A stretch of 64,000 bases of DNA from a phage. The translations under genes were made by a program, and so were the position numbers. Numbering within the stretch: the first letter of the stretch is position 1; every line of letters starts with the position of its first letter. This document shows, piece after piece, positions 8,307 to 62,515 of this stretch. The stretch lies in sequence record PX969468.1. The stretch is one strand, 5' to 3'. Below the pieces are notes generated by a model that ran no database searches, was not told where the DNA came from, and saw only the letters and a program-made list of their open reading frames with translations.

Positions 8307-8523
8307 GATCGTCCTCCACTATCTCTACATCCTCACCTAGGGCAAAGTTGTAGGCCCACTGGCTGTCAAAGCAGTCCTGAGATGCTCCAGCGGCAATAAG
8401 ATCTGCACCCTTTATTTTTAAAAGGTCAGGATAATCTTCGTTAGGGACAGCGGTAAACACTTTACCCACTAAAGGCTCCTGACCAATATAGAAGCTTGAA
8501 TCTAAAACTTTAACTTTCATCAA
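8296..8523 (-). CDS. hypothetical small protein (paralog family A)
   Basis: MMKVKVLDS...GADLIAAG...GEDVEIVEDD; tandem duplicate of 8052..8306. Confidence 0.5.
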   Translation of the reverse strand: MMKVKVLDSSFYIGQEPLVGKVFTAVPNEDYPDLLKIKGADLIAAGASQDCFDSQWAYNFALGEDVEIVEDDHEG

Positions 8524-8804
8524 CGGTCTCCCTCAGGTGGTTGGGGGACGTAAACACTGTTACGAATCTCATCAGCGGTGTAGTAGCAGGTTTTTCCAGC
8601 CCTGTCCCTAGCAGCAATATATTCAGCTATACCTACAAGCGCCATGGCTTTGGTAGCATATCTCCCTAATTCATCTGCTCCCCAGTAGAATTTAGACCAA
8701 TATGGGATAAGTCCAAACAAATATACCTTTTGTCTCACTTCCCAATAGGTCTCTTTACTACACACCTTGAACTCCACATCTGTATCGCAAATCTTTTTCA
8801 TCAC
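8520..8804 (-). CDS. hypothetical protein
   Basis: Track ORF trimmed to the internal ATG (MKKICDTD...) that overlaps the upstream stop as ATGA. Confidence 0.45.
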   Translation of the reverse strand: MMKKICDTDVEFKVCSKETYWEVRQKVYLFGLIPYWSKFYWGADELGRYATKAMALVGIAEYIAARDRAGKTCYYTADEIRNSVYVPQPPEGDR

Positions 8805-9097
8805 TGCCCCTCTTCTGTGGTTGGATTGGTAGTAAGATATTGTGCATTGGCCGGAGGTACACCAGACATCTTCCACACAATCATACATTTATACCCAGGA
8901 ATTCTCCTAAAAGATGCTCCTGAGGTATCCGTGCAGGAATATTTCCGTTTACCGAACCCGTTCTCAAGCATGATCCAGTATCCCGTGTCTTTATCACCTG
9001 GAATTGGTAATCCCTCATCGTCCACCCACTGAATGGACCACGGCACGATGGCTACAGCTTTATATTTAAACTTTTTAAACCACTCAAAAAGTTTCAT
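8801..9097 (-). CDS. hypothetical protein
   Basis: Track ORF. Confidence 0.45.
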   Translation of the reverse strand: MKLFEWFKKFKYKAVAIVPWSIQWVDDEGLPIPGDKDTGYWIMLENGFGKRKYSCTDTSGASFRRIPGYKCMIVWKMSGVPPANAQYLTTNPTTEEGQ

Positions 9098-9100
9098 AAT

Positions 9101-9190
9101 TCAGCCTCGCATAGACATAATCACTATAAACAGGCAAACAATGAATCCGAATGCCACGCCACCCATAAACGTTAATATTGATGCAATCAT
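9101..9190 (-). CDS. small hydrophobic peptide (29 aa)
   Basis: MIASILTFMGGVAFGFIVCLFIVIMSMRG; only a weak RBS. Confidence 0.3.
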   Translation of the reverse strand: MIASILTFMGGVAFGFIVCLFIVIMSMRG

Positions 9191-9192
9191 AG

Positions 9193-9378
9193 TCAATCAG
9201 TCTCGCTTGGCAACTCTTCCACCTTAACATGCCGAAAAGTGTTACCGTAATGGTTGATCCATGACATCAGCTCACTTTCTTGCTCTTCCTCTGGAATGAA
9301 CTCTCGAATACTGACAAGTTTTAAGAAAACCCAATCACAATCTGCACCCATTCTACCAGACAGACAATAGTGCTTCAT
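9193..9378 (-). CDS. hypothetical protein
   Basis: Track ORF. Confidence 0.4.
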   Translation of the reverse strand: MKHYCLSGRMGADCDWVFLKLVSIREFIPEEEQESELMSWINHYGNTFRHVKVEELPSETD

Positions 9379-9397
9379 AAAAACCCTCCATCCTGGT

Positions 9398-9598
9398 TTA
9401 GAATACTGCCTCTTTTAATGATCCAAGGAGCAGCAGGTGTGAAATCTGATCCACATTCATGGTAGATTCAATCTCCTCTCCTTTGAAAGGTTCTCGGCAA
9501 AACAGTACTACATTCGGGTTTTCGCTACGCACTATATAATACAGATCGTTCAAATAATTCTCATAGTAGGTATTAAATTTAAGAATTTTGTCACTCAT
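9398..9598 (-). CDS. hypothetical protein
   Basis: Track ORF. Confidence 0.45.
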   Translation of the reverse strand: MSDKILKFNTYYENYLNDLYYIVRSENPNVVLFCREPFKGEEIESTMNVDQISHLLLLGSLKEAVF

Positions 9599-9882
9599 TT
9601 TCTACTCCTCTTCTTAGATTTTTGGGGAGAAACGCTTTCTGCAATACGAGACAAACGTTCTTCTGAAGCCTTGCCTATTCCAGGTTTTTTGAGTGGATTA
9701 TCTTTATGACCACAATCCAATTGGATATCGGATACCTCTCCAACCTTGTAAGTCAATTCTAGCAAAAGGTTGTCGTCCTTGTCAAATGTTTTTACGATAA
9801 ATTTTTTATCGTCCTCCTGAACCTCATATCGGGTACCTGCAGTATACAGCATGGTGCCATCAGTATAGGATATCCAGATCAT
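9595..9882 (-). CDS. hypothetical protein (basic C-terminus)
   Basis: Track ORF; overlapping stop/start. Confidence 0.45.
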   Translation of the reverse strand: MIWISYTDGTMLYTAGTRYEVQEDDKKFIVKTFDKDDNLLLELTYKVGEVSDIQLDCGHKDNPLKKPGIGKASEERLSRIAESVSPQKSKKRSRK

Positions 9883-10226
9883 TGAGCCTCCTTCTGCTGC
9901 AACAGCATTAACTCTTTGTTAGAGATCTTTACTGCTGTTTTTATTGTTCCATCTTCACGGAACCACGACCAGAACTCTACAGTGTCACCACTATCAAGCA
10001 AAGCATGCCCATGGTAAAAATCCTTGTCCTTAGACAGTTTCTCATCTATATCTGCATCAACACATTCGTGATCCATAGCATTTTGCCTGAATGCATCGGT
10101 TATGCCAATGCATGCCTTGCTCTCAAGACTGGTATATCCGATATCTTTTAATTCAGTTTCCCAAGTCCAGTATCCTACAAAAGCTACAACAGCTGCCCAC
10201 ATTAATACCGACTTAATCTTTGGCAT
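9879..10226 (-). CDS. hypothetical membrane-anchored protein
   Basis: N-terminal TM helix (VLMWAAVVAFVGYWTW). Confidence 0.45.
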   Translation of the reverse strand: MPKIKSVLMWAAVVAFVGYWTWETELKDIGYTSLESKACIGITDAFRQNAMDHECVDADIDEKLSKDKDFYHGHALLDSGDTVEFWSWFREDGTIKTAVKISNKELMLLQQKEAQ

Positions 10227-42277: not shown

Positions 42278-42628
42278 ATGAAAGATGAGGATAAGCTGCT
42301 ATATCTTAAAGTCCCCCTTGAAATACTGTCTATGTCAAAAGTTTTGAATGGCACAACTGGGGAGGTTGTTGTTCTTGACTTATATGACAAGATCGTATAC
42401 TGCTACCTGCACAACTGGTATAAGCTTGGAGAAAATTCACGCTTCACACCCAGCACCAGGAAAATTGCAGCAGATGTTGGGATAAAGAAAACAAAAGCAG
42501 CAGCGTGCGTTAAAACTTTAGAATGTGCAGGAGTGGTTGAAATATCCACACAAGGGAGAGGTAAAAGATGCACATTTTCCAAAGTTTTGCCACCAGAAGA
42601 AGTTATTCGAATGTCAACAACTGGTTAG
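42278..42628 (+). CDS. helix-turn-helix DNA-binding protein (putative regulator or initiator)
   Basis: HTH-like segment RKIAADVGIKKTKAAACVKTLECAGVV; directly upstream of the iteron array. Confidence 0.45.
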   Translation: MKDEDKLLYLKVPLEILSMSKVLNGTTGEVVVLDLYDKIVYCYLHNWYKLGENSRFTPSTRKIAADVGIKKTKAAACVKTLECAGVVEISTQGRGKRCTFSKVLPPEEVIRMSTTG

Positions 42629-42700
42629 ACCAGTAAAAACTTAAACATCTGTACTATAAGGATTTGTATGTTTTATGTTCACTCTGGAGCAGAAGTTAGT

Positions 42701-42785
42701 AACTGTCCGTGATACGGACACTACTGTCCGTCACGCGGACACATCTGCCCGTAATACGGACACTAACTGTCCGTGATACGGACAC
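42701..42785 (+). repeat. Four tandem 21-bp direct repeats, each with a 15-bp palindrome GTCCGT-N3-ACGGAC (iteron/operator array)
   Basis: Repeat cores at 42705-42719, 42726-42740, 42747-42761 and 42769-42783; 21-bp period. Confidence 0.7.
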
Positions 42786-42925
42786 ATAAAGAATATAACT
42801 AAAATAACTAAATAATAAAAAATAAAAGATCTAGTACTTATGGTACTAAAGTACATATACTTAACTTATGTAGAATATACTAGATCCTAAGTACCATGTT
42901 TTAAATTTATTACTTATTATGGGTA
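42786..42925 (+). other. AT-rich block with a 9-bp inverted repeat (GATCTAGTA ... TACTAGATC); possible DNA-unwinding element
   Basis: Strongly AT-rich by eye, directly after the iterons. Confidence 0.5.
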
Positions 42926-43160
42926 GTGTCGGCCCTTCATTGGCACTCGCCTACGAGGGGCGAGATGCCGGGCCTCCATAGTGCACACAATAACAGAAGT
43001 GCATACATGCAGGACTGTTAACATGTGTGGGAACGAAGCGATAGCGCAGGCCAAAGGCCGAGCACTAATGTGGACCACCGACGAAAGCTTGCCAGCGCCG
43101 GAAGGAGTCGGTTGAGAGCCTCCCGCGCGAGTTCGGATAAAGTTTATGTGTGGAAACTGA
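42926..43160 (+). other. GC-rich ORF-free segment; candidate structured non-coding RNA
   Basis: No ORF of 60 aa or more in any frame between 42628 and 43290; abrupt rise in GC; multiple stem-forming segments. Confidence 0.35.
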
Positions 43161-43878: not shown

Positions 43879-44067
43879 ATGAACAATCCGGTAGCAAAGA
43901 ATTGTAATAAGTTCAACAAGTCTGCAATTCACACTGACAGGAAAAAGAGCTGGTCACCGGACATTGACGAGGAGCTGGAGAATTACTTTGAAGATCTGGT
44001 TACCAATGCAGGCGAGGTTGCGATTAAAGAATACGCAGACAGGAGGGATAAGGCCGGAATCTGTTGA
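43879..44067 (+). CDS. hypothetical protein
   Basis: Track ORF; GAGGAG RBS. Confidence 0.45.
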   Translation: MNNPVAKNCNKFNKSAIHTDRKKSWSPDIDEELENYFEDLVTNAGEVAIKEYADRRDKAGIC

Positions 44068-44143
44068 CAAAAATAATGTTACCTGATAAGATCTGCAATA
44101 TGATGTGATACAATTTTAACTTACGAGGTCTACAGGTAATGCT

Positions 44144-44399: not shown

Positions 44400-44720
44400 T
44401 ATCATGATGAATATCCAATTTAAAGATGAGTTTGATGGCTTTATCTCCGGATGCTTTGAAACAGGGTTCGGAGAAGGCTGAGTTACCCTTAGAGGGCTTG
44501 ATAGTGCACCACACTTAAAATGGTAGGGGCAGCCAGCACATGACGATGTGACCCCAGCCAACCTGTAATAAGGTCGAGCCAGAGCGCGGTAATGGGTATC
44601 TGGTAACCCACTCGTTGGGTCTTGTTGGTCCAGGACGCTGGGCAAGTCGCAGGGAACACCACCCTGCGGCGAACTTGACAATCAGTATTTGCCGTGATAA
44701 AATCCACCTATCACGTGATA
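44400..44720 (+). other. GC-rich segment upstream of the tRNA cluster; candidate stable structured RNA
   Basis: Only mutually overlapping ORFs on both strands; GC-rich with hairpins such as CAGGG-aacaccac-CCCTG. Confidence 0.35.
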
Positions 44721-45635: not shown

Positions 45636-45734
45636 GCTAGGTAAGCCCTTTGGCAAGGGCGAGGATTTTTAATCCTGAAAATAGACGAGGTAGTCGTTGA
45701 ATACATAGGTGGTTCGATTCCATCACCTAGCACC
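45636..45734 (+). tRNA. atypical tRNA-like gene (about 99 nt; Lys TTT-like anticodon loop; about 29-nt extra region); possible pseudogene
   Basis: Perfect 7-bp acceptor (GCTAGGT/ACCTAGC), D-arm, T-arm GGTGG-TTCGATT-CCATC, anticodon loop TTTTTAA with a 4-bp stem; insertion too long for a canonical type I tRNA; no full CCA. Confidence 0.35.
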
Positions 45735-47082: not shown

Positions 47083-47507
47083 TGTCTAAGATTTACGGAC
47101 CGTGTTCTGAAAAGCAGAAGATGATCCTAGAGAACGATGCAGATATTTTGGTGATCGGAGGTGCAGCTGGGTCTGGAAAGTCGTTCCTCTTGCAGCTAAT
47201 GCCACTTAAAATTATTGATGACCCACACAGCTCTGTGGTTATGTTCCGAAGAACAACTCCACAGTTGGAAGGTGAGGGTGGGCTATGGCCTAAAGCAGTA
47301 GCTATTTACAGTGATCTGCCTGAAAACATTAAACCAAAGTTCAGAGAGAAGGATCATAAGTTTATTTTTCCACGGTTTGATCCGAGCACTGGCAAGTGGG
47401 ACAGGAGCAAAAAAGGGGCCGTTGTAAAATACTGCCACATGGAGTATGTCCAAGATAAGCTTAACCATCAAGGCCTTGAGTACACCATGGTTTGCTTCGA
47501 TGAGGGT
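47082..47507 (+). CDS. terminase large subunit, exon 1 (ATPase N-terminal part)
   Basis: Walker A GGAAGSGKS, Walker B-like MVCFDEG; reading frame stops right after the Walker B region. Confidence 0.65.
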
Positions 47508-47557
47508 TAATTTGTAGCTCTCGTAAAACCTCCCTAATTGCGGGGAAATCTTTATTA

Positions 47558-47586
47558 TTGACACCACCAACCTGTTATGGTAACAT
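47558..47586 (+). promoter_or_regulatory. sigma70-like promoter inside the intron (TTGACA-17-TAACAT)
   Basis: Hexamers at 17-bp spacing about 140 nt upstream of the endonuclease ORF. Confidence 0.4.
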
Positions 47587-47725
47587 GATAGAGGCTTCGA
47601 AGAGAGATCGAAGGTATGGTAACAGTGTGTTGATTTAGATAATCCGCAGCGAAGCATCCGAGAGGATGAACGTTCAACGACTAGTCGAAAGACGTAGAAT
47701 CAAGCGATTCGAAACGGGAGGGTGA

Positions 47726-48316
47726 ATGTGTAATACTAAAAAATGTATGGATTGCCAAAGAGTTCTACCTCTTGATGATTTCTTTTTATCATCTAAGAGC
47801 CAGGATGGATACTCAGGTACATGCAAGGAATGCTATATGTACTACAGGAAGAATGGATCTCGTAGAAACAAAAATATGGTTAAGAGAGATGATGCAGCAT
47901 CTTTTATTCAAGACTTACTGAAGAAAGGTGAGCTTTTTGAATGTAAATCTTGTCATGAAAGTATGCTTGCTGATAGTTTTTACACAAAACGCGACTATGG
48001 TAAAGTGTATCTAGTCACGAACAGGTGTAAGATGTGTGAAAAGTTTTATCAGATTGAGAAGAAATTTCACATAACAAAAGATGAATACTATCGTCTACTC
48101 TCAGATCAAGATCATAAGTGTGCAATCTGTAGAATATCTCTTGATGAGTATAAGACTCAAGGATATAGAGATTTCTTTTGTGTTGATCATGACCATAAAA
48201 CTGGTGCTGTAAGAGGGTTGCTTTGTGATAAATGCAACAGGGCTTTAGGTTTCTTCCAAGAGGATGAGGAAACCATTCTTAGAGCGGCAGAGTATTTACA
48301 CATTCATAAGATATAG
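47726..48316 (+). CDS. endonuclease VII-like / HNH-family zinc-finger homing endonuclease (intron-encoded)
   Basis: CVDHDHKTGAVRGLLCDKCNRALGF matches the EndoVII core; several upstream CxxC pairs. Confidence 0.6.
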   Translation: MCNTKKCMDCQRVLPLDDFFLSSKSQDGYSGTCKECYMYYRKNGSRRNKNMVKRDDAASFIQDLLKKGELFECKSCHESMLADSFYTKRDYGKVYLVTNRCKMCEKFYQIEKKFHITKDEYYRLLSDQDHKCAICRISLDEYKTQGYRDFFCVDHDHKTGAVRGLLCDKCNRALGFFQEDEETILRAAEYLHIHKI

Positions 48317-48390
48317 TCTGGTCTGCATGGAGACATGCAGCTGCCTGAAAATGGCGGGGCAAGACTAGCGACCTTGCCCGAACATAAACG

Positions 48391-49512: not shown

Positions 49513-49562
49513 GTGTTGCCAATCTTAATTAGATGTGGTACAATAAAGTAATTGGAGATACT

Positions 49563-49588
49563 AGCCCTCTGACGAGGGCTATTTTGTT
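49563..49588 (+). terminator. terminator-like hairpin (AGCCCTC-TGAC-GAGGGCT plus T-rich tail)
   Basis: 7-bp stem then ATTTTGTT, after the terminase gene. Confidence 0.45.
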
Positions 49589-49612
49589 ATACTGTTTTGA
49601 GGGGTAAAGCTT

Positions 49613-51169: not shown

Positions 51170-51236
51170 AAATTATCAACACAGGGGGTTGCAAAACCTC
51201 CTTTGGCGTGATAAAATAATCCACATGGGGAATAAG

Positions 51237-51656
51237 ATGCCACAGGAAGAAATGATTTCCTACGAAATCATCTACGAGCCTGACACTAAAGATGCTCACG
51301 GTGAGTGGATGAGTAAAGACACCATCAAAAAGGCTAAAGATAACTGGGACGCAGCATACGCCGCAGGCCTAGTTTCTGAAAACCTTTTTCACTTGACCTC
51401 TACAGATGCTTTCACTATTGAAAAGACGTGGATTCAAGAAGAGTTTGATGTTGTAGTAATTGGCACTGAGCAGGTCATCAAGGCTGGCTCTTGGGTTGCT
51501 AAAGTTAAATACAATAATCCTGAACTATGGGAAGCTAAGAAGGCTGGCATTGTTGGTGGCCTAAGCATTCAGGCAACAGGTAATGTTGATGAAGAAACTG
51601 GTGAAATTACCAACGTAAACTTCGGGATCAGTGTTGTAGAAGAGGGCAATGAATAA
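51237..51656 (+). CDS. hypothetical head-module protein; start uncertain
   Basis: Track ORF between portal and scaffold. Confidence 0.4.
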   Translation: MPQEEMISYEIIYEPDTKDAHGEWMSKDTIKKAKDNWDAAYAAGLVSENLFHLTSTDAFTIEKTWIQEEFDVVVIGTEQVIKAGSWVAKVKYNNPELWEAKKAGIVGGLSIQATGNVDEETGEITNVNFGISVVEEGNE

Positions 51657-54182: not shown

Positions 54183-55010
54183 GTGAAGAGAGCCGTATAT
54201 CCAGTTGAGTATGATCCTCTATTAAGAGTTTTCAACAATCAGTTAAGTTTTTATCAATTTTTAGCACAATATAACCCAGAAATCAATGTTGGTTTATCAG
54301 CCCTGCTGCCACCAACAGAATTCGTTATTGGCAGTGTTCACTATCCATGCAGAACGATTGTAGACTTCTTCGAGAAGATTGCAAAACATACAGGCCTGCC
54401 AATTGATACTGGTATTTCAACTATCCGTATGGGTGTTATTCTTCTGTTCTTCACAGAAAACCTTGATGAAAGCACTTTAACACTGCAAAGCGGGGATGTC
54501 AATATCACACTCACTCCGTCAGTGTTTAAAGAGGTAGATGCTGCTTTCCAAGTTTCCGTGGCAGAGGGCCATTTATGGGACCCTGTAGGGATGCCTAAAA
54601 AAGTGACCATAAACGATGAGCAATGCAACATTGTTTATGAAGAAGATACCCAAACTTTCACCATTGAGTGGCCTAAGAAACGTTCTCAGGTTGTAAATCT
54701 TGGACTGGTCTCTACGATAGCTCCACCTCCTGAACCAGAGCCGGAGCCGCCTGTAGGTCCTACTGAACCTAGTGGTGACGGTGAAGTTACTGTAGCAGAT
54801 CCGCAAGATGTGACTGTATCATCTTCCTCATTTGTAGCCATTGAGAATAAGGATGAAATCCTTAAACAGGCCGCAGCTCTTAACAACGAAGATGACAAAA
54901 GTGGTTCAAAAGATGCACTCCAAACCTTCGCTAAAGAGTACGGTGTTACCTTAAGTAAGGCAAAAACTTTCCAAAATATGATGAAAGATTTTGAGGCTGC
55001 ACTGGCATAA
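54183..55010 (+). CDS. hypothetical structural protein with Pro/Glu-rich linker
   Basis: GTG start with AGGAG RBS; linker PPPEPEPEPPVGPTEPSGDGE. Confidence 0.5.
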   Translation: MKRAVYPVEYDPLLRVFNNQLSFYQFLAQYNPEINVGLSALLPPTEFVIGSVHYPCRTIVDFFEKIAKHTGLPIDTGISTIRMGVILLFFTENLDESTLTLQSGDVNITLTPSVFKEVDAAFQVSVAEGHLWDPVGMPKKVTINDEQCNIVYEEDTQTFTIEWPKKRSQVVNLGLVSTIAPPPEPEPEPPVGPTEPSGDGEVTVADPQDVTVSSSSFVAIENKDEILKQAAALNNEDDKSGSKDALQTFAKEYGVTLSKAKTFQNMMKDFEAALA

Positions 55011-55069: not shown

Positions 55070-55690
55070 ATGGCATGGTATGAAGATGAAGAGATTATCC
55101 CGTCACCGCCTAACCATGATGGTGTAGTCGATACCCCAGAAGAGCCACCAAAAGAAGATCCTGTACCTCCAGAACCTGATCCAGACCAACCTCTTATTAA
55201 TATTATGAGGTTGTTGCTCGGCAATGTTGATGAGGAAACTCTCCCTGATGAGGTAATTAAAACATTCCTTGACATGGAGAAGTTGAAACTAAATTATCCG
55301 GCAGATCCTGATAAGCTACCTCTACTTAAATACAATGTGCTTGTGCAACTTGTGCGGTGGCTGATGATGCAGGAAGTGTCCAGCGGTAATGCAAGTATAA
55401 CTTCCCGTCTGGAAAAAATAGGTGATGAGACTATAGAGATTCGTGGTGGGTCTTCCTACGCTCAATGGAAAGATTTCCTTGATTGGCTGCTGGCACACCC
55501 CGACTATGTAGATTCTGAGCTAGATGCTTACAGCAGAATGATTATCATTGGTGGTGTTCGTGTAGATGAAGGAATTCGGGTTAAATTTAATGAAAACAGC
55601 AACGGGCCGTTCGATGTCCAGGGTATTACACCTATCAGTGGTCTAAATAACCAACCTCCTCGCCACCCAAGACGCAAACGCAGTTTTTAA
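55070..55690 (+). CDS. hypothetical head-tail joining region protein
   Basis: Start moved to MAWYEDEE... downstream of the terminator hairpin. Confidence 0.5.
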   Translation: MAWYEDEEIIPSPPNHDGVVDTPEEPPKEDPVPPEPDPDQPLINIMRLLLGNVDEETLPDEVIKTFLDMEKLKLNYPADPDKLPLLKYNVLVQLVRWLMMQEVSSGNASITSRLEKIGDETIEIRGGSSYAQWKDFLDWLLAHPDYVDSELDAYSRMIIIGGVRVDEGIRVKFNENSNGPFDVQGITPISGLNNQPPRHPRRKRSF

Positions 55691-55696
55691 AAATTG

Positions 55697-55725
55697 TTGC
55701 TTTTGATGTATCTTTGTGGTAAAAT
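55697..55725 (+). promoter_or_regulatory. sigma70-like promoter with extended -10 (TTGCTT-17-TGgTAAAAT)
   Basis: Shares the tGGTAAAATAC motif with the promoter at 59218..59246. Confidence 0.5.
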
Positions 55726-55743
55726 ACATTAGTGAGGGATATA

Positions 55744-56202
55744 ATGCTAAAGGTTAAATGTCAAACAAGGTTCAACCTAAAGCGTTTAGATCGCTTCTAC
55801 AAAGAACTTGTGAGACTTGAAAGTAAAACAATAACCTACGGCTTTTATGACGAACCTCACCCGTCAGGCTTAAATATGGCAACATTGGCAGCCATTCACA
55901 ACTTCGGTTGGAACGGGCTGCCTGTTCGCAATTTCATGGAGACAGCCTTTGCATTTCACAGCACTCAACTACAGACCTTGACAGAAAAATTGTTGAGAGC
56001 TATGGCTAGAGGATCAAGTGCAGAGGCTATTCTTAAGCAGATGGGGGACACAGGGGCCAAAGCTATCCAGTTTGTTATTGAGGCTGGTCAGTTTAGTAAC
56101 CCTACTGTTAGTGAGCAGTGGGCACAAGAAAAGGGCTTCAACGAGGCTATGCGGCATTACGATGTGCTGCTTGAATCTGCAACCTTTAAAATTGGACAGT
56201 AA
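55744..56202 (+). CDS. hypothetical structural protein (neck/tail completion region)
   Basis: ATG preceded by GAGGGA. Confidence 0.5.
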   Translation: MLKVKCQTRFNLKRLDRFYKELVRLESKTITYGFYDEPHPSGLNMATLAAIHNFGWNGLPVRNFMETAFAFHSTQLQTLTEKLLRAMARGSSAEAILKQMGDTGAKAIQFVIEAGQFSNPTVSEQWAQEKGFNEAMRHYDVLLESATFKIGQ

Positions 56203-56217
56203 AAATAAGGGGGTTGA

Positions 56218-56643
56218 GTGGCAGCAGGTTATAAGCTGATAGGAAAGAACAGGCTAATACCTCGTAAAACATTCAAAGGTCGCCACAGAGTGTATAACAA
56301 AACAGTTGGTGGTCCTTTTGCTAACGAGGGGTTAGAACTTAAGTATGAAGAGTTTGATGTCTTAGAGTGTGTTGTGCAGCCGTTGACAGGAAGGGCAGCC
56401 AAAGATTACTCCTCTCAAATAAACCCTGAAGGTGACAGACAGTACGAGGCTTTTACAGTTTACTCCTCAACCAAGTTGTATAGTCCGGATGAAGGAACAT
56501 ATGCAATGGCTGACCAAATTCAGCTGCCCGACATCCGTGGTGACTTGAAATGGTTTACTGTTTTAAAATGCGATGCATATGTTACCTCTGGTGGTGGGAG
56601 ATATAGATTTTTTGTGGTAGAAGAGCCTGAAGGAGAAAACTGA
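56218..56643 (+). CDS. hypothetical structural protein
   Basis: GTG start with GGGGG RBS. Confidence 0.5.
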   Translation: MAAGYKLIGKNRLIPRKTFKGRHRVYNKTVGGPFANEGLELKYEEFDVLECVVQPLTGRAAKDYSSQINPEGDRQYEAFTVYSSTKLYSPDEGTYAMADQIQLPDIRGDLKWFTVLKCDAYVTSGGGRYRFFVVEEPEGEN

Positions 56644-57194
56644 TGGAAGCTTTCGAAAAAGTTTTTTCTGATCTTGAAACAACCATTGCTAAGCTCGTCA
56701 AGGTTGCCACAGGAAGAACTGTAGTTCTGGCAGAAAGCTCTACCATACCTAAGCCGGAAGGTGAGTTTGTACTTTTACAAACCTTGGCGATCAATCCAAC
56801 CACTTGGGAAGATAATGAGTTTCAAGACGCGGAGGGTAATGCCTACGTCACCCACAGTTACACTGTTACTTATCTGTTAACAGCTTATCGTGGCAGGGCA
56901 TATGCTGCACTTAGCAGAGTATTGCAAGCAATAAACCTTCCGATGTTTTATGACAAGTATTTCCCTCTGGGATCGTGCTTTGCCTACTCTAACAATTCAA
57001 CAATCTCACCTCAAAGAGTGCCGTTGAATAAGCAGACGTATGAAAATAGAGCCACTGTGATGCTGACATTTAACGTAAGGTTTGTTGAAACAGACATTGG
57101 GGCTTTTGAGGATCTTGAGGGAATTAAGGCTGAAATAACCACACACTTCCCTTCACCCAATTCTGGTAAAGCGGTTACAGACAGTGGTCAGTAA
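56643..57194 (+). CDS. hypothetical structural protein
   Basis: Translationally coupled (ATGA overlap). Confidence 0.5.
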   Translation: MEAFEKVFSDLETTIAKLVKVATGRTVVLAESSTIPKPEGEFVLLQTLAINPTTWEDNEFQDAEGNAYVTHSYTVTYLLTAYRGRAYAALSRVLQAINLPMFYDKYFPLGSCFAYSNNSTISPQRVPLNKQTYENRATVMLTFNVRFVETDIGAFEDLEGIKAEITTHFPSPNSGKAVTDSGQ

Positions 57195-57266
57195 TCGTTA
57201 TAATTGTGTAGTGTAATGATTACACTGCGTGTTTGATATCCGTGCACAGATATTAAGAGGAAACAA

Positions 57267-58643
57267 ATGCCATATTTAGATAAAGTGGTAGATGTTACAG
57301 TTAACCTCGGAACCCAGCCTATTGACACTGTAGGTTTCGAAACTCCCCTGTTCATCGCTATCCACAACAACTTTACTGAGCGAGCTCGCGTATATGCAGA
57401 GCTGGATCAGATGGTGGAAGATGGTTTCGCACAAGGCTCTGCAGCGTATGAGTTTGCAGCAAAAGCTTTTGGTGGTGTATTCCCTCCACAATACGTTATG
57501 ATCGGTAGACAGGCCAAAGAAAAGACCACTGTAGATTTTAAAGGTATTGCTGCCGCAGCTGATACCGATGTCGTAATGACTATTGCAAAAGGTAGCTACA
57601 ATACCTCTTTGATAGTCCCTATCTCTGGTGGAACAGCTGCAACTCAGATTGCAGAATCAATGAAGACTAAAATCGAAGCAGATGATAACTTGGACGATAT
57701 CACTGTAGAGGCTGCTGATGGTGTTATCACCATCACTGGTGACTGTACTGTTGGTTACCATACTGGTAACTATACAATCAAAAATATCGCCAATGCTGAA
57801 AAACCTTCTACAGTAGTTGATAAGATCAATGCTGAGCGTGACAATTGGTACTTCCTGTGCCATGAAGACCACACCGACATTGAAGCATGTGCTAAGTGGG
57901 CTCAGGCTAACTACAAGCTGCATGTCTACTCTACGGCAGAAGATGTGACTGGTAAAGATAATAACATCGCCACCAAACTGAAAGCTGCACAATATGACAG
58001 TGTCGGCATGTACGATCCTCGCGCAGATAAGGACTTCCCAGAGGGTGGTATCGTAGGCGCTATGGCATCCAACGATCCGTCTTACGGTGACAGCTTGCAT
58101 TTAAAACAGATGCCGGGTGTGATTGCACCATCTATGACTTTAACTCAGCGTATGGCGATTTGGGAAAACCACGTTAACTTCTACAGAATGATTAACGGTG
58201 TTGGTGCTTTCTGGGAAGGCAAGTGTGCTTCAGGTCAGTATGCAGACGCTATTCGTTTTGCACACTGGATCAAGTTCAGATCTGAAGAATCTATGTTTGG
58301 GTACATGCATCGTCGCTCCAACATGGGTTTAAGCATGAAGATGTCTGATGATGATCTTCCGGTTATCAAGTCTGTCCTGATGAACAACCCAATCAACACT
58401 GGCATTAAGAATGGTGCGATCCTGACAGGTTTTGACGAAGACAACAATGTGTTCTACGACCCGATCATCACAGTTCCTAAACGTGCAGAGATTCCAACCA
58501 ATCAGTTGGCTGCTCGTGTTCTGGAAGGTGTGAAAGTAGAACTGGTGTATAACAACGCCCTGCACTTCGTTCGTATCCGGATCAACGTCCTTCTGGACAA
58601 AGTTGGTTCTAAATCCACCAATGCTGTTGCAATGACTGAATAA
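57267..58643 (+). CDS. tail sheath protein (putative)
   Basis: 458 aa immediately followed by a 157-aa tube-sized protein, chaperone and tape measure (contractile-tail gene order); strong codon bias. Confidence 0.5.
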   Translation: MPYLDKVVDVTVNLGTQPIDTVGFETPLFIAIHNNFTERARVYAELDQMVEDGFAQGSAAYEFAAKAFGGVFPPQYVMIGRQAKEKTTVDFKGIAAAADTDVVMTIAKGSYNTSLIVPISGGTAATQIAESMKTKIEADDNLDDITVEAADGVITITGDCTVGYHTGNYTIKNIANAEKPSTVVDKINAERDNWYFLCHEDHTDIEACAKWAQANYKLHVYSTAEDVTGKDNNIATKLKAAQYDSVGMYDPRADKDFPEGGIVGAMASNDPSYGDSLHLKQMPGVIAPSMTLTQRMAIWENHVNFYRMINGVGAFWEGKCASGQYADAIRFAHWIKFRSEESMFGYMHRRSNMGLSMKMSDDDLPVIKSVLMNNPINTGIKNGAILTGFDEDNNVFYDPIITVPKRAEIPTNQLAARVLEGVKVELVYNNALHFVRIRINVLLDKVGSKSTNAVAMTE

Positions 58644-58653
58644 GGAAGACTAG

Positions 58654-59127
58654 ATGGAAACTCAAATTTTAACTCCTTATGCTTATGATCCTAAAAAGGT
58701 CAAACTGTATCTGATGCAGCAGCGTGTCACTGGCTTCGCTGCTGACACCAAGATCGTTGTTTCAAGAAACGAAGACAACATCTACCCTCACGTTGGTGTG
58801 GATGGCGAAATGTCTGCTGCCCTGTCTCGTAACCAATCTGGTGTTATGACTGTATCTTTGCAGAACACTTCTGTATGGAACGCTTACCTTTCTGACTGGC
58901 AGAAACAGGCATCGATTACTGGCCTGGTATTCTTCCCGGTTCTGCTGGAAGGTAGCCAGGGCCCTGGTATTTCCACAATTGGTTGGATCCAGAAACAGCC
59001 TGACCTGACTTACGGAACCGAAGTAGGTCAGCTGGACTGGGATATCGGTATTCTGGATGCATGGCTCAACCGTGATAACATCACTGGTGCTCTTACTGGC
59101 CTCGCAGGTCTTGCAGGTATTATCTAA
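58654..59127 (+). CDS. tail tube protein (putative)
   Basis: 157 aa between sheath and chaperone genes. Confidence 0.5.
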   Translation: METQILTPYAYDPKKVKLYLMQQRVTGFAADTKIVVSRNEDNIYPHVGVDGEMSAALSRNQSGVMTVSLQNTSVWNAYLSDWQKQASITGLVFFPVLLEGSQGPGISTIGWIQKQPDLTYGTEVGQLDWDIGILDAWLNRDNITGALTGLAGLAGII

Positions 59128-59145
59128 GGGCACACTTTAGCATAA

Positions 59146-59170
59146 GCCTCACCTTCGGGTGGGGCTTTTT
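59146..59170 (+). terminator. rho-independent terminator (8-bp stem, TTCG loop, T5)
   Basis: GCCTCACC-TTCG-GGTGGGGC followed by TTTTT. Confidence 0.7.
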
Positions 59171-59217
59171 GCTTTTATGGTTTTGACACACGTTCTTGAA
59201 TTGCTTGAAAGGTTAAA

Positions 59218-59246
59218 TTGACAATGCACCATAATCATGGTAAAAT
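59218..59246 (+). promoter_or_regulatory. sigma70-like promoter (TTGACA-17-TGgTAAAAT)
   Basis: Consensus -35 and extended -10 upstream of the chaperone gene. Confidence 0.55.
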
Positions 59247-59289
59247 ACACAAATATGGTGCACAACATGACTAATAAGGATGCTATAAA

Positions 59290-59763
59290 ATGGCTATAAA
59301 CTTTAGACCTACAACAGAGATTGATTTAGCAGGGCACAACTTTGTGATCACCCACTGGGGACCGATGAAAGCAATGAAAAACATGCCTAAAATCGGTAAG
59401 ATTGTGGCTGTCCCGCTAGGTGCTATCGGTGGATCTATTATCTCAGGCGGTCAGAACATGGCAGAGGTCCTTCCTACAGCTCTGGCTTACCTGTTCCAAG
59501 AACTTGATGATAACTCTATTGAAGAGCTATTTAAAATCTTGTTCGAAGATATTACCGTAGATGGTGTGGATAAGCTTAACCCGGATGTTGTGTTTGCAGG
59601 GCATCTGCTGGAGATGATTAAGCTGGCAGGTAAGGTTCTGGAGGTTAACTACGGCTGTTTTTTCACACAAGACGGTTTAGGAAGCCTTCTGGAGATGTTA
59701 CAGCAGATGGGTATGATTCAGCAGGTGAACAACCTGGATCAGACTCCGGAAGAGCAGGAATAA
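59290..59763 (+). CDS. tail assembly chaperone (short form)
   Basis: Located between tube and tape measure genes; contains a slippery heptamer and an overlapping -1 frame ORF. Confidence 0.6.
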   Translation: MAINFRPTTEIDLAGHNFVITHWGPMKAMKNMPKIGKIVAVPLGAIGGSIISGGQNMAEVLPTALAYLFQELDDNSIEELFKILFEDITVDGVDKLNPDVVFAGHLLEMIKLAGKVLEVNYGCFFTQDGLGSLLEMLQQMGMIQQVNNLDQTPEEQE

Positions 59764-60023
59764 GCAAGGTTGTTGTGAGGGCCAGTGAGTGGGCAGCCAA
59801 GAACAGTTCACTCAACTGGTTCGACTTTCTTTGGTGCAGGGTGCTCAAGAATTTCAAAGGGGAAAATTTTGAATCGCTAAATCTTGCAGATATGGCGTAT
59901 TTCCTGAAGCTCTGTGAGTATCTTGATATCGAAGAATTCCTAGATACCGTCCAAAACAGGGAAATGGAGCGGGAGCAGAAGGCTGCCGCAGCTGCTGCGA
60001 AAGCTAAGCGCAGGAGAGGATAA
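59290..60023 (+). CDS. tail assembly chaperone, predicted -1 frameshift-extended form (about 244 aa)
   Basis: Slippery T TTT TTC at 59658-59664; the -1 frame is open from 59649 to 60023 and covers track ORF 59775..60023. Confidence 0.5.
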
Positions 60024-60077: not shown

Positions 60078-62411
60078 ATGGCTACAAACAAAATAGTTGC
60101 CACAACAGTCAACAAGATTGGCTTTGAGATAGAGAACTCCTCCTACAAAAAAGCTGTAGAGAAAATTCGCAGTATTGGGAGGGAGTTCAGGAAACTGGGC
60201 GAGGATTTTAACTCAGCCAACCCCATGAGTAGATGGCAGGCGGTAGCTGTTAAAACCCAGCAGACAATGCAGAGGGTTGCCAGACAGCAATCTCAGGCAA
60301 ATGCTAAACTGCACAGAGAGAGCGTAGCACAGGCCAAGAAAGAGGCTGCAGTAAGGGCTGCAATAGAACGTAGGGAGAATGCGAGACGTAAACAAGCTGT
60401 AGGTAATCTTACCGCTAAAAATCCAGAAATGGCTAGGATGCGTAAGTTCTACCAGCAGCAAGCTAAAGAGGCCAAAAAGGCTGCCAAATCTGCACCAGTG
60501 TCTTACGGCGGTTATAAGCCACCTAAGGCAAGAGTTCTGGCTAATGCTAAAGCTTTCAAATATATCCCCGGTAACCCTAATATGGGTGGTGTGGCTTCCG
60601 ACCCTAATCTTGTGAAAGCTCAGACAGCTGCTATGAATCGTTATCATAGACAGCTAAGAAGGGACGGTAAAGCTGGTATGGATAATAGGCTTATGTCGGA
60701 TCGTGAGGCAAGAAGAACCCACCTCTACAACTCCGCGATAAGACTTTCTGCCAAGTATGGTGCCGGATTCCGTGGAAGCTTGCCAGGATACTCAGAGTTA
60801 GAGTCCAGGTTTGCTCGCGGGGAGATGAAAAAGTCAACCTTTAACGCCCACCTGTCAGCGCTGCAGTCTGGATTTAAAAGTGCCACCAGCCAAACGCTTA
60901 CACTAGGCGATGCCATGAGAGACTTACGTAGATCTGTTATTAATGCAACAGCTGCGTATACAGCTTTTTCTGGATTTGCTGCGGTTAACAGATCCGGTCA
61001 CATGATGGAGGGGGCAAGTGCTGCTCTTACTGCTGTTACTGGAGATCCAAACAAAGCCAACAGTGAGGTTGCGTTTGTCCAGCAAGAGGCTATGCGTCTT
61101 GGTTTTGATCTCAAATCTGGTCTTCAAGGTTACGCCCAAATGTCGGTAAACGCCAAAAACCAGATGACAAACCAGGAAGTGCATGAGCTGTTTTCTGCAT
61201 ATTCCCAGTATGCTGCTGCTTATGGTGCTGATGAGGTAAAATACCAGCGCGGTATTATGGCAATCCAACAGATGCTCGGTAAGGGACAAGTAATGTCCGA
61301 AGAGCTGAAGCAACAACTCGCTGAAGCATTGCCTGGTGCATATGAACCTTTTATCAAGGCCACCAAAGAGGCTTTTGGTCTTTCTGAACTCTCCATGGAT
61401 CAGTTCATGGACATGATGAAGAAAGGTGAGGTTAAAACAGCCAAGATCATGAAGTATGTAGCTAAGTACATGAACGAGGCATCTGCAGCTGGTTATGAAA
61501 GAATGCAGAAGTCTAACGTGCTGGCAGAAAACAGACTGAAAACCTTCATCGAACTGACTCGTCAGAAACTGTTCACCCGTTGGTCTGACGAACTAACAGA
61601 GTTCTATTATACACTAATCCGCACTGGTGAGACTCTGCAATTTGTGTGGGATGCCTCTGGTGATTTTGTTAGCGGGTTTGTGAGAGGCCTTAACTGGGTA
61701 GTTGGTGAACTAAACAATACTATAGTTAAGATCCGCATGTTTTTCCTTGAATGGGGTATTAAATGGGGATTCATAACAGCTAAGACGAAGGAATATTCTG
61801 AAGAGCTTCATGACACCTTTAGCTATGCTAAATGGGCAGGGTTTGCTGCTGCCATCATGCTGGTCGTCAACGCCCTAACAAAAGGTTTTGTCATGGCATC
61901 TATGCTTGTAAAAACCTTTAAATTCCTTAATTCTCTAAGAGGTGCAGCTGGAGCAGCAGGTGCAGCTACTGCAGAAGGATCTGGTGGTGGCGCGGCAGGA
62001 AAAGGTGGAGGTGGCCTCAAGACACCTGGTGGTAAAGTTGGTCTGCTTGGCAAGCTGGGCATTATCGGTACAATATTAAGCGCCGGGGAATTATTTAATG
62101 ACCGTTTCAACCCGCTGAGTGAAAGAAATCAGCAACTGGATACTATCAGCGATATGATTCGCAAAGATATCATATCGGGAGGTAACGGGTTTGTTAATCC
62201 TTTGGACACCTTGCCGGGTGGGACTCTTCCGTTGCCAGGTGGTCCTGGTTTTGCTTCTCAATTAAGAACTATGGAAATGCTACCTTTAGAGATCAGTGAT
62301 GGGAAAATCACGCTTTCCATAGATGAGGGCGAGTTTAGCAAAATACTTGATGCAAAACTTGAGTGGGAGAACAGTAAAGATATCAACTTCATGTCTACCG
62401 ACCTTTGGTAG
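60078..62411 (+). CDS. tail tape measure protein
   Basis: 777 aa, Ala/Gln-rich helical N-terminus, Gly-rich tract (GAAGAAGAATAEGSGGGAAGKGGGG), directly after the chaperone pair. Confidence 0.7.
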   Translation: MATNKIVATTVNKIGFEIENSSYKKAVEKIRSIGREFRKLGEDFNSANPMSRWQAVAVKTQQTMQRVARQQSQANAKLHRESVAQAKKEAAVRAAIERRENARRKQAVGNLTAKNPEMARMRKFYQQQAKEAKKAAKSAPVSYGGYKPPKARVLANAKAFKYIPGNPNMGGVASDPNLVKAQTAAMNRYHRQLRRDGKAGMDNRLMSDREARRTHLYNSAIRLSAKYGAGFRGSLPGYSELESRFARGEMKKSTFNAHLSALQSGFKSATSQTLTLGDAMRDLRRSVINATAAYTAFSGFAAVNRSGHMMEGASAALTAVTGDPNKANSEVAFVQQEAMRLGFDLKSGLQGYAQMSVNAKNQMTNQEVHELFSAYSQYAAAYGADEVKYQRGIMAIQQMLGKGQVMSEELKQQLAEALPGAYEPFIKATKEAFGLSELSMDQFMDMMKKGEVKTAKIMKYVAKYMNEASAAGYERMQKSNVLAENRLKTFIELTRQKLFTRWSDELTEFYYTLIRTGETLQFVWDASGDFVSGFVRGLNWVVGELNNTIVKIRMFFLEWGIKWGFITAKTKEYSEELHDTFSYAKWAGFAAAIMLVVNALTKGFVMASMLVKTFKFLNSLRGAAGAAGAATAEGSGGGAAGKGGGGLKTPGGKVGLLGKLGIIGTILSAGELFNDRFNPLSERNQQLDTISDMIRKDIISGGNGFVNPLDTLPGGTLPLPGGPGFASQLRTMEMLPLEISDGKITLSIDEGEFSKILDAKLEWENSKDINFMSTDLW

Positions 62412-62421
62412 TAAACTGTGT

Positions 62422-62447
62422 AGGGGGCTCTGGCCCCCTTTATTTTA
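62422..62447 (+). terminator. rho-independent terminator (AGGGGGC-TCTG-GCCCCCT plus T-rich)
   Basis: 7-bp stem followed by TTATTTTAT. Confidence 0.6.
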
Positions 62448-62515
62448 TCAGTGTTGTAAAAACGGCTATTTTATGATACAATATTTAGATGGTATCGGAG
62501 TGTCCTGGAGAGGTT

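Follow-up and report, generated by a model that had tools for sequence, protein, structure and literature searches.

Predicted extended -10 promoters in the structural arm of an rV5-like phage, probably read by host sigma-70 polymerase

How the head, neck and tail genes of an rV5-like phage are transcribed is the question raised by a pair of near-identical sequence elements in the 64,000-nucleotide stretch of phage DNA analysed here (sequence record PX969468.1; the window, in what follows, means this whole stretch). A first-pass annotation had described tGGTAAAATAC elements at 55720 and 59241 (sites 1 and 2 below) and a related tGGTAACAT at 47581, inside the terminase intron (site 3), and had proposed that they form one regulatory class of the structural module, driven by host sigma-70 or by a phage-modified polymerase. 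All three elements are present on the plus strand, each with a TTG -35 at 17 bp, and the intron around site 3 does belong to group I. One non-random promoter class includes both site 1 and site 2; these two, judging from comparative sequence analysis, are probably functional promoters of the sigma-70 'extended -10' type; we put the probability of this reading at roughly 75%. By its identity to sequenced phages the window is Vequintavirus (rV5-like myovirus) DNA: the 5 kb around the sites share 98.6% identity with Escherichia phage Murica and some 120 further Vequintavirus genomes. The three sites are as follows.

55697-55725, plus strand: site 1, predicted promoter; -35 TTGCTT at 55697-55702, -10 TAAAAT at 55720-55725, then AC
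59218-59246, plus strand: site 2, predicted promoter; -35 TTGACA at 59218-59223, -10 TAAAAT at 59241-59246, then AC
47558-47586, plus strand: site 3, TTGACA-N17-TGgTAACAT; -35 at 47558-47563, -10 TAACAT at 47581-47586, 17-bp spacer ending in ATGG

The sites are intergenic, run in the same orientation as the next gene, and all three share a TTG at -35, a 17-bp spacer, a TG at -15/-14, and the A and T at positions 2 and 6 of the -10 hexamer. At site 1 the spacer ends in TGTGG (a TRTGn motif, 55715-55719) and the -10 matches the consensus at 5/6 positions, A at position 2 and T at position 6 among them; site 2, whose spacer ends in ATGG, matches at 11/12 consensus positions and has the TG in addition. 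The recurrence of the motif lies far above chance, as measured against dinucleotide-preserving shuffles: the 11-mer common to sites 1 and 2, TGGTAAAATAC, occurs twice in the window (0.04 expected), and TTG-N17-TGNTAMAAT six times (0.13 expected), always on the plus strand and between 44.6 and 62.5 kb. A looser score combining -35, a spacer of 16-18 bp, TG and -10 finds 26 sites against 2.6 +/- 1.4 expected, 24 of them on the locally transcribed strand. Among sense-strand TGnTAnnnT words, 12.6% have a TTG exactly 17 bp upstream, compared with 2-5% at other spacings and a background of about 2% (a 6-fold excess); the same words on the antisense strand show no TTG excess at 17 bp.

The argument for function comes from conservation of position across genera, as seen at site 1. 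With the downstream gene as bait, IMG/VR loci were recovered at 97% and about 76% protein identity, and the homologous regions of phages PVP-SE1, CR3, KpS8 and Av-05 were added (product names here and below are those of relatives).

55744-56202, plus strand: gene downstream of site 1; tail-completion/Neck1 family, rV5 gp56 homolog
55684-55695, plus strand: A/T-rich tract TTTTTAAAAATT, just 5' of the weak site 1 -35, overlapping the stop codon of the preceding gene and conserved within the genus

Site 1 is kept in six clades, namely Vequintavirus, an IMG/VR sister clade, Seunavirus, Certrevirus, Mydovirus and Avunavirus. The TTG, the 14-nt gap, the TGTGG, the TA(A/T)AAT and the distance to the start codon are retained in all of them, while spacer, flanks and leader diverge. 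The orthologous elements read:

Window: TTGCTT...TGG-TAAAAT-ACA
IMG/VR clade: TTGAAA...TGG-TATAAT-TTA
PVP-SE1, KpS8 and Av-05: TTGATT...TGG-TAAAAT-ACC
CR3: TTGCTT...TGG-TAAAAT-AAC

The same pattern appears among close relatives: in seven genomes the 11 variable columns of the region all lie in spacer, flanks and leader, outside TTGCTT and TGTGGTAAAAT. The within-genus tally (0/17 element positions variable, against 7/~36 other non-coding positions) is suggestive and too small for significance alone. The A/T-rich tract could possibly serve as an UP-like element, to judge by its composition and place.

Site 2 is confined to Vequintavirus and one metagenomic sister clade, where it takes part in a different kind of arrangement. 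It stands between the tail-tube gene and the tail assembly chaperone gene, and together with the terminator after the tube gene it forms a terminator-then-promoter module. The chaperone gene is followed by a gene at 59775-60023 and then by the tape-measure gene at 60078-62411.

59144-59176, plus strand: intrinsic terminator after the tail-tube gene, stem at 59144-59167 plus T-run; identical to rV5 t052
59183-59188, plus strand: relic -35 TTGACA with no -10 partner
59290-59763, plus strand: gene downstream of site 2; tail assembly chaperone, rV5 gp51 homolog

In the sister clade (loci L016-L018) the equivalent of site 2 is TTGACA-N17-TGcTA(T/A)AAT, again 5' of the chaperone gene and within a wholly different spacer. 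A by-eye alignment of window positions 59168-59190 with L015-L018 positions 8430-8460 makes the relic -35 the homolog of one in this clade, where it belongs to a complete promoter 5' of variable cargo. The cargo itself amounts to some 1.7 kb of variable genes between tube and chaperone (L015-L018, ~8405-10150), with N-termini that differ among L015, L016 and L017, and it is bracketed by its own terminator plus a TTGACA-N17-TGgTATAGT promoter on one side and by a second promoter on the other; the site looks like a hotspot for mobile or moron genes. Megablast found no match to L015-L018 among sequenced phages.

Five other genera show no promoter in the tube-to-chaperone spacer, which is only about 75 nt long in the following phages and carries a conserved nested hairpin instead; in the window the terminator and site 2 stand in its place.

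PVP-SE1, L002:609-685
KpS8, L003:628-711
pEp_SNUABM_01, L004:609-690
EspYZU08, L005:609-685
Av-05, L006:613-690
CR3, L007:1612-1685

The nested hairpin (TTTCGTGTGCCACATGGACGTGGCCTTTATACACG) shows compensatory changes in its outer stem (GTGTG/CACAC versus GTGAG/CTCAC) and has a ribosome-binding region, AAGACGCAGGAGCGTAC, conserved on its 3' side. Attenuation, RNA processing and mRNA stabilisation are possible roles for this hairpin, which may in this way set the ratio of tube to chaperone expression. Separately, the site 2 -10 and its predicted start lie between the arms of an 8-bp inverted repeat, TGCACCAT-N21-ATGGTGCA, at 59225-59261; the repeat is probably not an operator, since its left arm is changed without compensation in L012 and L014.

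Genes from position 1 to about 41.7 kb of the window lie on the minus strand and encode nucleotide metabolism and replication accessories, and those at ~42-64 kb lie on the plus strand, comprising small genes, seven tRNAs, spanins, the split large terminase, portal, capsid, neck, sheath, tube, chaperone and tape measure. A motif search along this layout extends the class beyond the sites first listed, with further members at 49516, 51189 and 62454. It also removes the idea that the class is confined to the structural module: two relatives with a stronger -35, at 44064 and 44675, lie upstream of that module, and related sigma-70-like promoters are spread over the window, in both of its arms, and throughout the genome of EdH4, a close relative.

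44064-44092, plus strand: TTGACA-N17-TGaTAAGAT (rV5 P075), 5' of a small gene, before the tRNA cluster
44675-44703, plus strand: TTGACA-N17-TGaTAAAAT (rV5 P074), 5' of a small gene, before the tRNA cluster
49516-49544, plus strand: class member TTGCCA-N17-TGgTACAAT (rV5 P064), between the terminase and portal genes
49562-49589, plus strand: intrinsic terminator (rV5 t064), ~11 nt 3' of the predicted 49516 start and 5' of the portal gene (49613)
51189-51217, plus strand: class member TTGCAA-N17-TGaTAAAAT-A, 5' of the gene at 51237-51656 (rV5 gp63 homolog); absent from the published rV5 list
62454-62482, plus strand: class member TTGTAA-N17-TGaTACAAT, directly 3' of a terminator at 62422-62439

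Throughout the late arm the TTG always stands 17 bp 5' of the -10 and the TG is always kept, within a TRTGn extension. Orthologs of the -10 read TAAAAT, TATAAT, TAGAAT or TACAAT, with A2 and T6 invariant, a range of variation that sigma-70 tolerates. The 51189 site corresponds to TTGCAT-N17-TGgTAGAAT-A in L015-L018 and to TTGCAA-N17-TGtTAAAAT-A in PVP-SE1, a phage that also has a terminator followed by TTGTTT-N17-TGaTAAAAT at the place of the 62454 member.

The complete genome of EdH4, which was assembled and split into four transcription arms, gives the wider picture. TTG/TGnTAnnnT sites number 47 on the sense and 13 on the antisense strand, and TTGAC[AT]-type promoters 56 and 5. Promoter flavours differ from arm to arm: the early arm has A/T-rich upstream sequence, TTGACA and 16-17-bp spacers, with TG in only 4/23; in the nucleotide-metabolism arm GTG-TTGACA and TATnnT are frequent, and 12/20 have the TG; and the structural arm holds eight TTGnnn-N17-TGnTA(A/C)AAT-A sites, which stand apart from the other arms in that their -35 is weak (TTGnnn), their spacer invariably 17 bp long and their TGnTAAAAT-A close to consensus. 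Five of these eight have their counterparts in the window (49516, 51189, 55697, 59218 and 62454). Because 5/8 stand directly 3' of an intrinsic terminator, the structural arm appears to be built from terminator-then-promoter modules.

Much of this had been anticipated. Kropinski et al. (2013, Virol J 10:76; PMC3606486) predicted 33 sigma-70-like promoters in rV5, 11 of them with an extended -10, and their Table S4C of 'putative late promoters', with the MEME motif TggTAaAAtA, includes P056 (TGATGTATCTTTGTGGTAAAATACATTAGTGAGGGAT) and P051 (TGCACCATAATCATGGTAAAATACACAAATATGGTGC). These two fall at window positions 55704 and 59225 with exact 37-nt identity and before the same genes. Sites 1 and 2 are thus, letter for letter in the sequences compared, a rediscovery of an in silico prediction that was already known. 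P064 is likewise found exactly, at 49523, and P055 and P048 recur with one mismatch each at 56602 and 62441. The match to P048 overlaps the -35 of the TTGTAA-N17-TGaTACAAT promoter at 62454-62482 and would be better read as part of it; P055 (TGGTAGAAG), a TAGAAG that lacks the final T of the -10 and lies inside a gene, was set aside as doubtful. The same paper reports the rV5 terminase intron with its homing endonuclease and the terminators t052, t064 and t049, and it weighed sigma-70 against a modified polymerase, likening the motif to the T4 TATAAATA. Its list treats the motif as a -10-only element and has neither the 51189 site nor the intron site nor comparative evidence. What is added here, then, is a consistent reading with TRTGn and an invariant -35 TTG 17 bp upstream, the 51189 site, the cross-genus conservation of site 1, the finding that site 2 is modular and restricted to the genus, and the setting of site 3 within an intron.

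On the sigma-70 reading, host RNA polymerase holoenzyme would bind TRTGn and TAAAAT through sigma regions 3.0 and 2.4, with region 4.2 on the correctly spaced -35 TTG, and would initiate about 7 nt 3' of the -10, near 55732 and 59253. The start at site 2 would give a 37-nt leader. Some eight such promoters would punctuate the head-neck-tail arm of Vequintavirus genomes, mostly directly after intrinsic terminators, a placement which suggests that each restarts transcription for the next morphogenesis block: site 1 for the neck/tail-completion block, and site 2 for the chaperone/tape-measure block. The sequences themselves show the anatomy, the enrichment, the strand bias and the conservation in evolution; from these we infer sigma-70 as the reader, the transcript starts and the 'late' status of the class, location in the morphogenesis arm being the only support for that timing. 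The sites have in common with E. coli sigma-70 extended -10 promoters (TGn or TRTGn) the TG at -15/-14, often as TGTG, the A at -11, the T at -7, a possibly weak -35 and the 17-bp spacer; they differ from the generic E. coli set in the stronger conservation of the G after the TG and of the A after the hexamer. Within the same subfamily, the early promoter of the Certrevirus phages CB7 and CR3, AAAA(N3-4)TGTTGAC(N17-19)TATAAT (PMC7344957), is also of host type and resembles the GTG-TTGACA promoters of the non-structural arms described above. That motif belongs to early and middle regions and has a strong -35 plus an UP element, whereas sites 1 and 2 lie in the structural arm and have a weak or variable -35 with TGnTAAAAT.

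Several points weigh against this interpretation. The -35 of site 1, TTGCTT, has only 3/6 matches to consensus, and a start at about 55732 would leave a leader of only some 12 nt, including the Shine-Dalgarno (SD) sequence GAGGG at 55734-55738. Site 2, being so close to the sigma-70 consensus, should be able to fire as soon as the DNA enters the cell, which is at odds with 'late' timing. TGGTAAAATA is conserved across genera more tightly than sigma-70 alone is known to require, and a further factor could therefore read the site. The 49516 member, unusually, has a terminator after it and not before it, an arrangement also found in EdH4. Transcripts from it would, on the predicted positions, mostly end after about 40 nt barring read-through, and 49516-49612 may represent an attenuator, a 5' stabilising hairpin or a non-functional site; at least one class member may thus be attenuated or without function. 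Finally, no start-site mapping, RNA-seq or in vitro data for Vequintavirinae promoters were found in the literature.

Site 3 has to be considered apart, and on a different balance of evidence. In the intron RNA it occupies the peripheral extension of P5, which, compared with the Rfam model, is inserted in the P4-P5 loop; an endonuclease open reading frame (ORF) follows 140 nt to its 3' side.

47508-48390, plus strand: group I intron in the large terminase gene; full-length match to RF00028, 48.3 bits, E 6e-11
47726-48316, plus strand: homing-endonuclease candidate, Endonuclease VII / HNH-like family (PF02945, E 1.9e-21)

The intron score is just under the gathering score of 50, and the match was found by E-value search. 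Exon 1 ends in U at 47507 and the intron in G at 48390, and the spliced TerL is identical at 514/516 positions to the uninterrupted TerL of Murica. Many Vequintavirus genomes, Murica and EdH4 among them, have no intron here. In phage naswa (L021:301-707) the intron is without an ORF and otherwise about 99% identical; its P8 is a short hairpin (AAGCG...CGCTT), a helix that in the window is formed by the ends of the endonuclease cassette (GAATGTGTAA...TTACACATTC). The three states of the terminase intron (absent, ORF-less, with ORF) make a clean series for homing-endonuclease gain and loss.

Most simply, site 3 would be the private promoter of the endonuclease gene. In the group I introns of T4 (td/I-TevI and relatives), the ORFs have internal middle or late T4-type promoters just on their 5' side, and the ribosome-binding site is paired in the full-length precursor. 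Site 3 resembles these in lying inside a group I intron, 5' of an endonuclease ORF whose ribosome-binding site is predicted to be paired, and departs from them in being sigma-70-like, 140 nt distant, embedded in P5 helices and present in an ORF-less intron too. The endonuclease SD, GGGAGG (47714-47719), is the 3' strand of P3, and the AUG lies in the 5' strand of P8. In the predicted fold of the full 5' part, CCUCCC pairs with GGGAGG (z = -4.1), and in that of an RNA begun at 47593 the SD is mostly unpaired, with the AUG still in a weak helix and z only -1.55. An RNA begun at site 3 would lack the 5' strand of P3, and would therefore have its ribosome-binding site freed.

The competing explanation is that site 3 is no promoter and that its sequence is kept for the peripheral helices of P5, the likeness to a promoter being incidental. 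It draws on the same predicted fold, which has AUUGACAC paired to GUGUGUUGAU, a hairpin made of CUGUUAUG-GUAA-CAUGAUAG (z = -4.1), and both -35 and -10 embedded in helices, and on the unchanged site 3 sequence of the naswa intron, which has no gene to drive; the element thus does not travel with the endonuclease cassette. Both of these points count against a promoter at this place. However, in non-coding sequence of a few hundred bases chance would rarely produce 10/12 matches together with a perfectly spaced TG, the element is co-oriented with the endonuclease ORF and 140 nt 5' of it, the SD is predicted to be sequestered in P3 in the full intron and largely free in the shorter RNA, in keeping with the logic known from T4 intron ORFs, and the naswa intron, being so similar, may have lost its ORF recently and kept a relic promoter. 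We lean modestly towards a promoter, and the structural coincidence is a serious contender that falls somewhat short of an even chance. Membership in the class is in any case tentative, owing to the TAACAT -10 (4/6 consensus and without the trailing A of the class), the location in structured intron RNA and the persistence in an ORF-less intron. The proposal of a shared class thus stands for sites 1 and 2, with their anatomy readable by sigma-70 and cross-genus conservation, and is weakened for site 3.

As to the identity of the polymerase, the sigma-70 enzyme might read the sites only after modification by the phage or with a phage co-factor, TTGnnn-N17-TRTGgTAAAATA being then the true late class. 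Early promoters that depend on the -35 and UP element would be shut off by an Srd/sigma-70-decoy homolog, by a modifier of region 4 or of the alpha-CTD, or by a PHROG-639 regulator, and extended -10 promoters, needing the affected contacts less, would take over the polymerase. The division of promoter flavours among the EdH4 arms (early, TTGACA with TG in 4/23; structural, weak -35, TG and TAAAAT) agrees with this idea, as does the near-invariance of GTGGTAAAATA across five genera at site 1, beyond generic sigma-70 demand. The phage also has candidates for the switch, namely an rV5 gp11 homolog with hits in two PHROG families, 'decoy of host sigma70' (6e-15) and 'Srd anti-sigma factor' (3.6e-10), and a conserved 101-aa PHROG-639 'transcriptional regulator'; extended -10 promoters are, moreover, resistant to the T4 AsiA-type block of sigma region 4. 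However, a TTG at fixed spacing is kept in every member, which suggests that region 4.2 still makes its normal contact, and site 2, 44064 and 44675 combine a perfect TTGACA with TGn, a misfit with any 'weak -35' rule. The sister clade, in addition, has a plain TATAAT at site 1, and Srd of T4 has since been linked to RNase E stimulation instead of anti-sigma activity, which counts against a decoy. We therefore regard the need for a modified polymerase as unlikely.

A related and bolder proposition is that TTGnnn-N14-TGG-TAAAAT-A constitutes a dedicated late class at orthologous neck/tail positions, switched on with no T4-like late sigma. One possible route would be the disabling of -35/UP-dependent early promoters by the Srd-like sigma-70 decoy or another factor. 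Vequintavirinae that carry the orthologous element infect Escherichia, Salmonella, Cronobacter and Klebsiella. We hold this to be a long shot; if true, a large virulent myovirus would be timing its late transcription in a distinct, so far uncharacterised manner, with promoter grammar left unaltered.

That the sites are T4-like late promoters, with the -10 8-mer GTAAAATA read independently of the -35 by a gp55-like phage sigma as is T4 TATAAATA, is very improbable and we reject it. The resemblance, noted with the MEME motif 5' of late genes (PMC3606486), is superficial: both systems place a short A/T-rich -10 element closely 5' of morphogenesis genes, and an A after the hexamer is frequent, but GTAAAATA matches TATAAATA at only 5/8 positions, orthologs vary to TATAATTT and TAGAATAG, and homologs of gp55, gp33 and gp45, on which T4 late promoters depend, are reported absent from rV5, as is an RNA polymerase gene (PMC3606486). 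Sigma-70, rather than gp55, is favoured as the reader by the -35 TTG at exactly 17 bp, the TRTGn with its TG at -15/-14 and the conserved A2 and T6 beside variable hexamer positions 3-4; T4 late promoters have neither the TTG nor the TG, and gp55 requires neither. The annotation of Murica, inspected over 46 kb, contains no sigma-like gene, and none appeared among the four proteins profiled (including the Srd/sigma-70-decoy-like protein, the PHROG-639 regulator and an HTH_36 protein), to which the scan of the proteome was limited. Least credible, and rejected, is an artefact of chance or composition in A/T-rich intergenic DNA, where TAAAAT-like words are common, or a recent cassette duplication, given the shuffle expectations of 0.04 and 0.13, the sense-strand bias, the cross-genus orthology and the fact that sites 1 and 2 have only the 12-nt TGGTAAAATACA in common and are therefore not duplicates.

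Other features of the window and of its relatives deserve mention. Four tandem 21-22-nt repeats (TAACTGTCCGTGATACGGACAC) at 42700-42785, within a 396-nt non-coding gap (42629-43024), each contain an internal palindrome, GTCCGT-N4-ACGGAC, and are followed by an A/T-rich stretch; they lie just 3' of a gene for an HTH_36 / PHROG 'replication initiation protein' (42278-42628) and have the look of a replication origin of the iteron type. Within the tRNA cluster, a 99-nt tRNA-like gene (45636-45734) has an anticodon of four bases (atcc) according to ARAGORN and scores only 35.5 bits with Rfam; its label in Murica is tRNA-OTHER (Asp|Gly), and the tRNA may be of an unusual kind or contain an intron. 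On the minus strand at 54474-54502, within the structural gene 54183-55010, an antisense TTGACA-N17-TGtTAAAGT recurs in relatives (L013:3739, L015:3587), and reads TTGGCA-N17-TGtTAAAATAC in the 76% clade; either an antisense promoter or mere conservation of coding sequence could account for it. A hairpin with no good T-run (GTGTAGTGTAATGATTACACTGCGTG), 5' of the sheath gene at 57205-57231, is conserved (L015:6470-6495) and shows a compensatory change in the 70%-identity clade (GTGTAAT/ATTACAC versus GCGTAAT/ATTATGC), neither clade having a promoter there; it may be an element of RNA processing or stability. About 18 UNVERIFIED GenBank records of 'Campylobacter phage' (A141, C2, A112b etc.) are 97-99% identical to E. 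coli Vequintavirus genomes, and probably represent mislabelled hosts or contaminant phages.

All together, these comparisons yield a cleaner and comparatively supported promoter map for the rV5-like phages, a group in wide use against E. coli O157 and represented in the BASEL collection. The practical value of the map is modest; it aids annotation, engineering (in the placement of payloads for expression) and the design of transcriptomic experiments. For the subfamily, the conserved element at site 1 offers a well-defined handle on how Vequintavirinae time the expression of their late genes with neither a phage RNA polymerase nor late factors of the T4 type.

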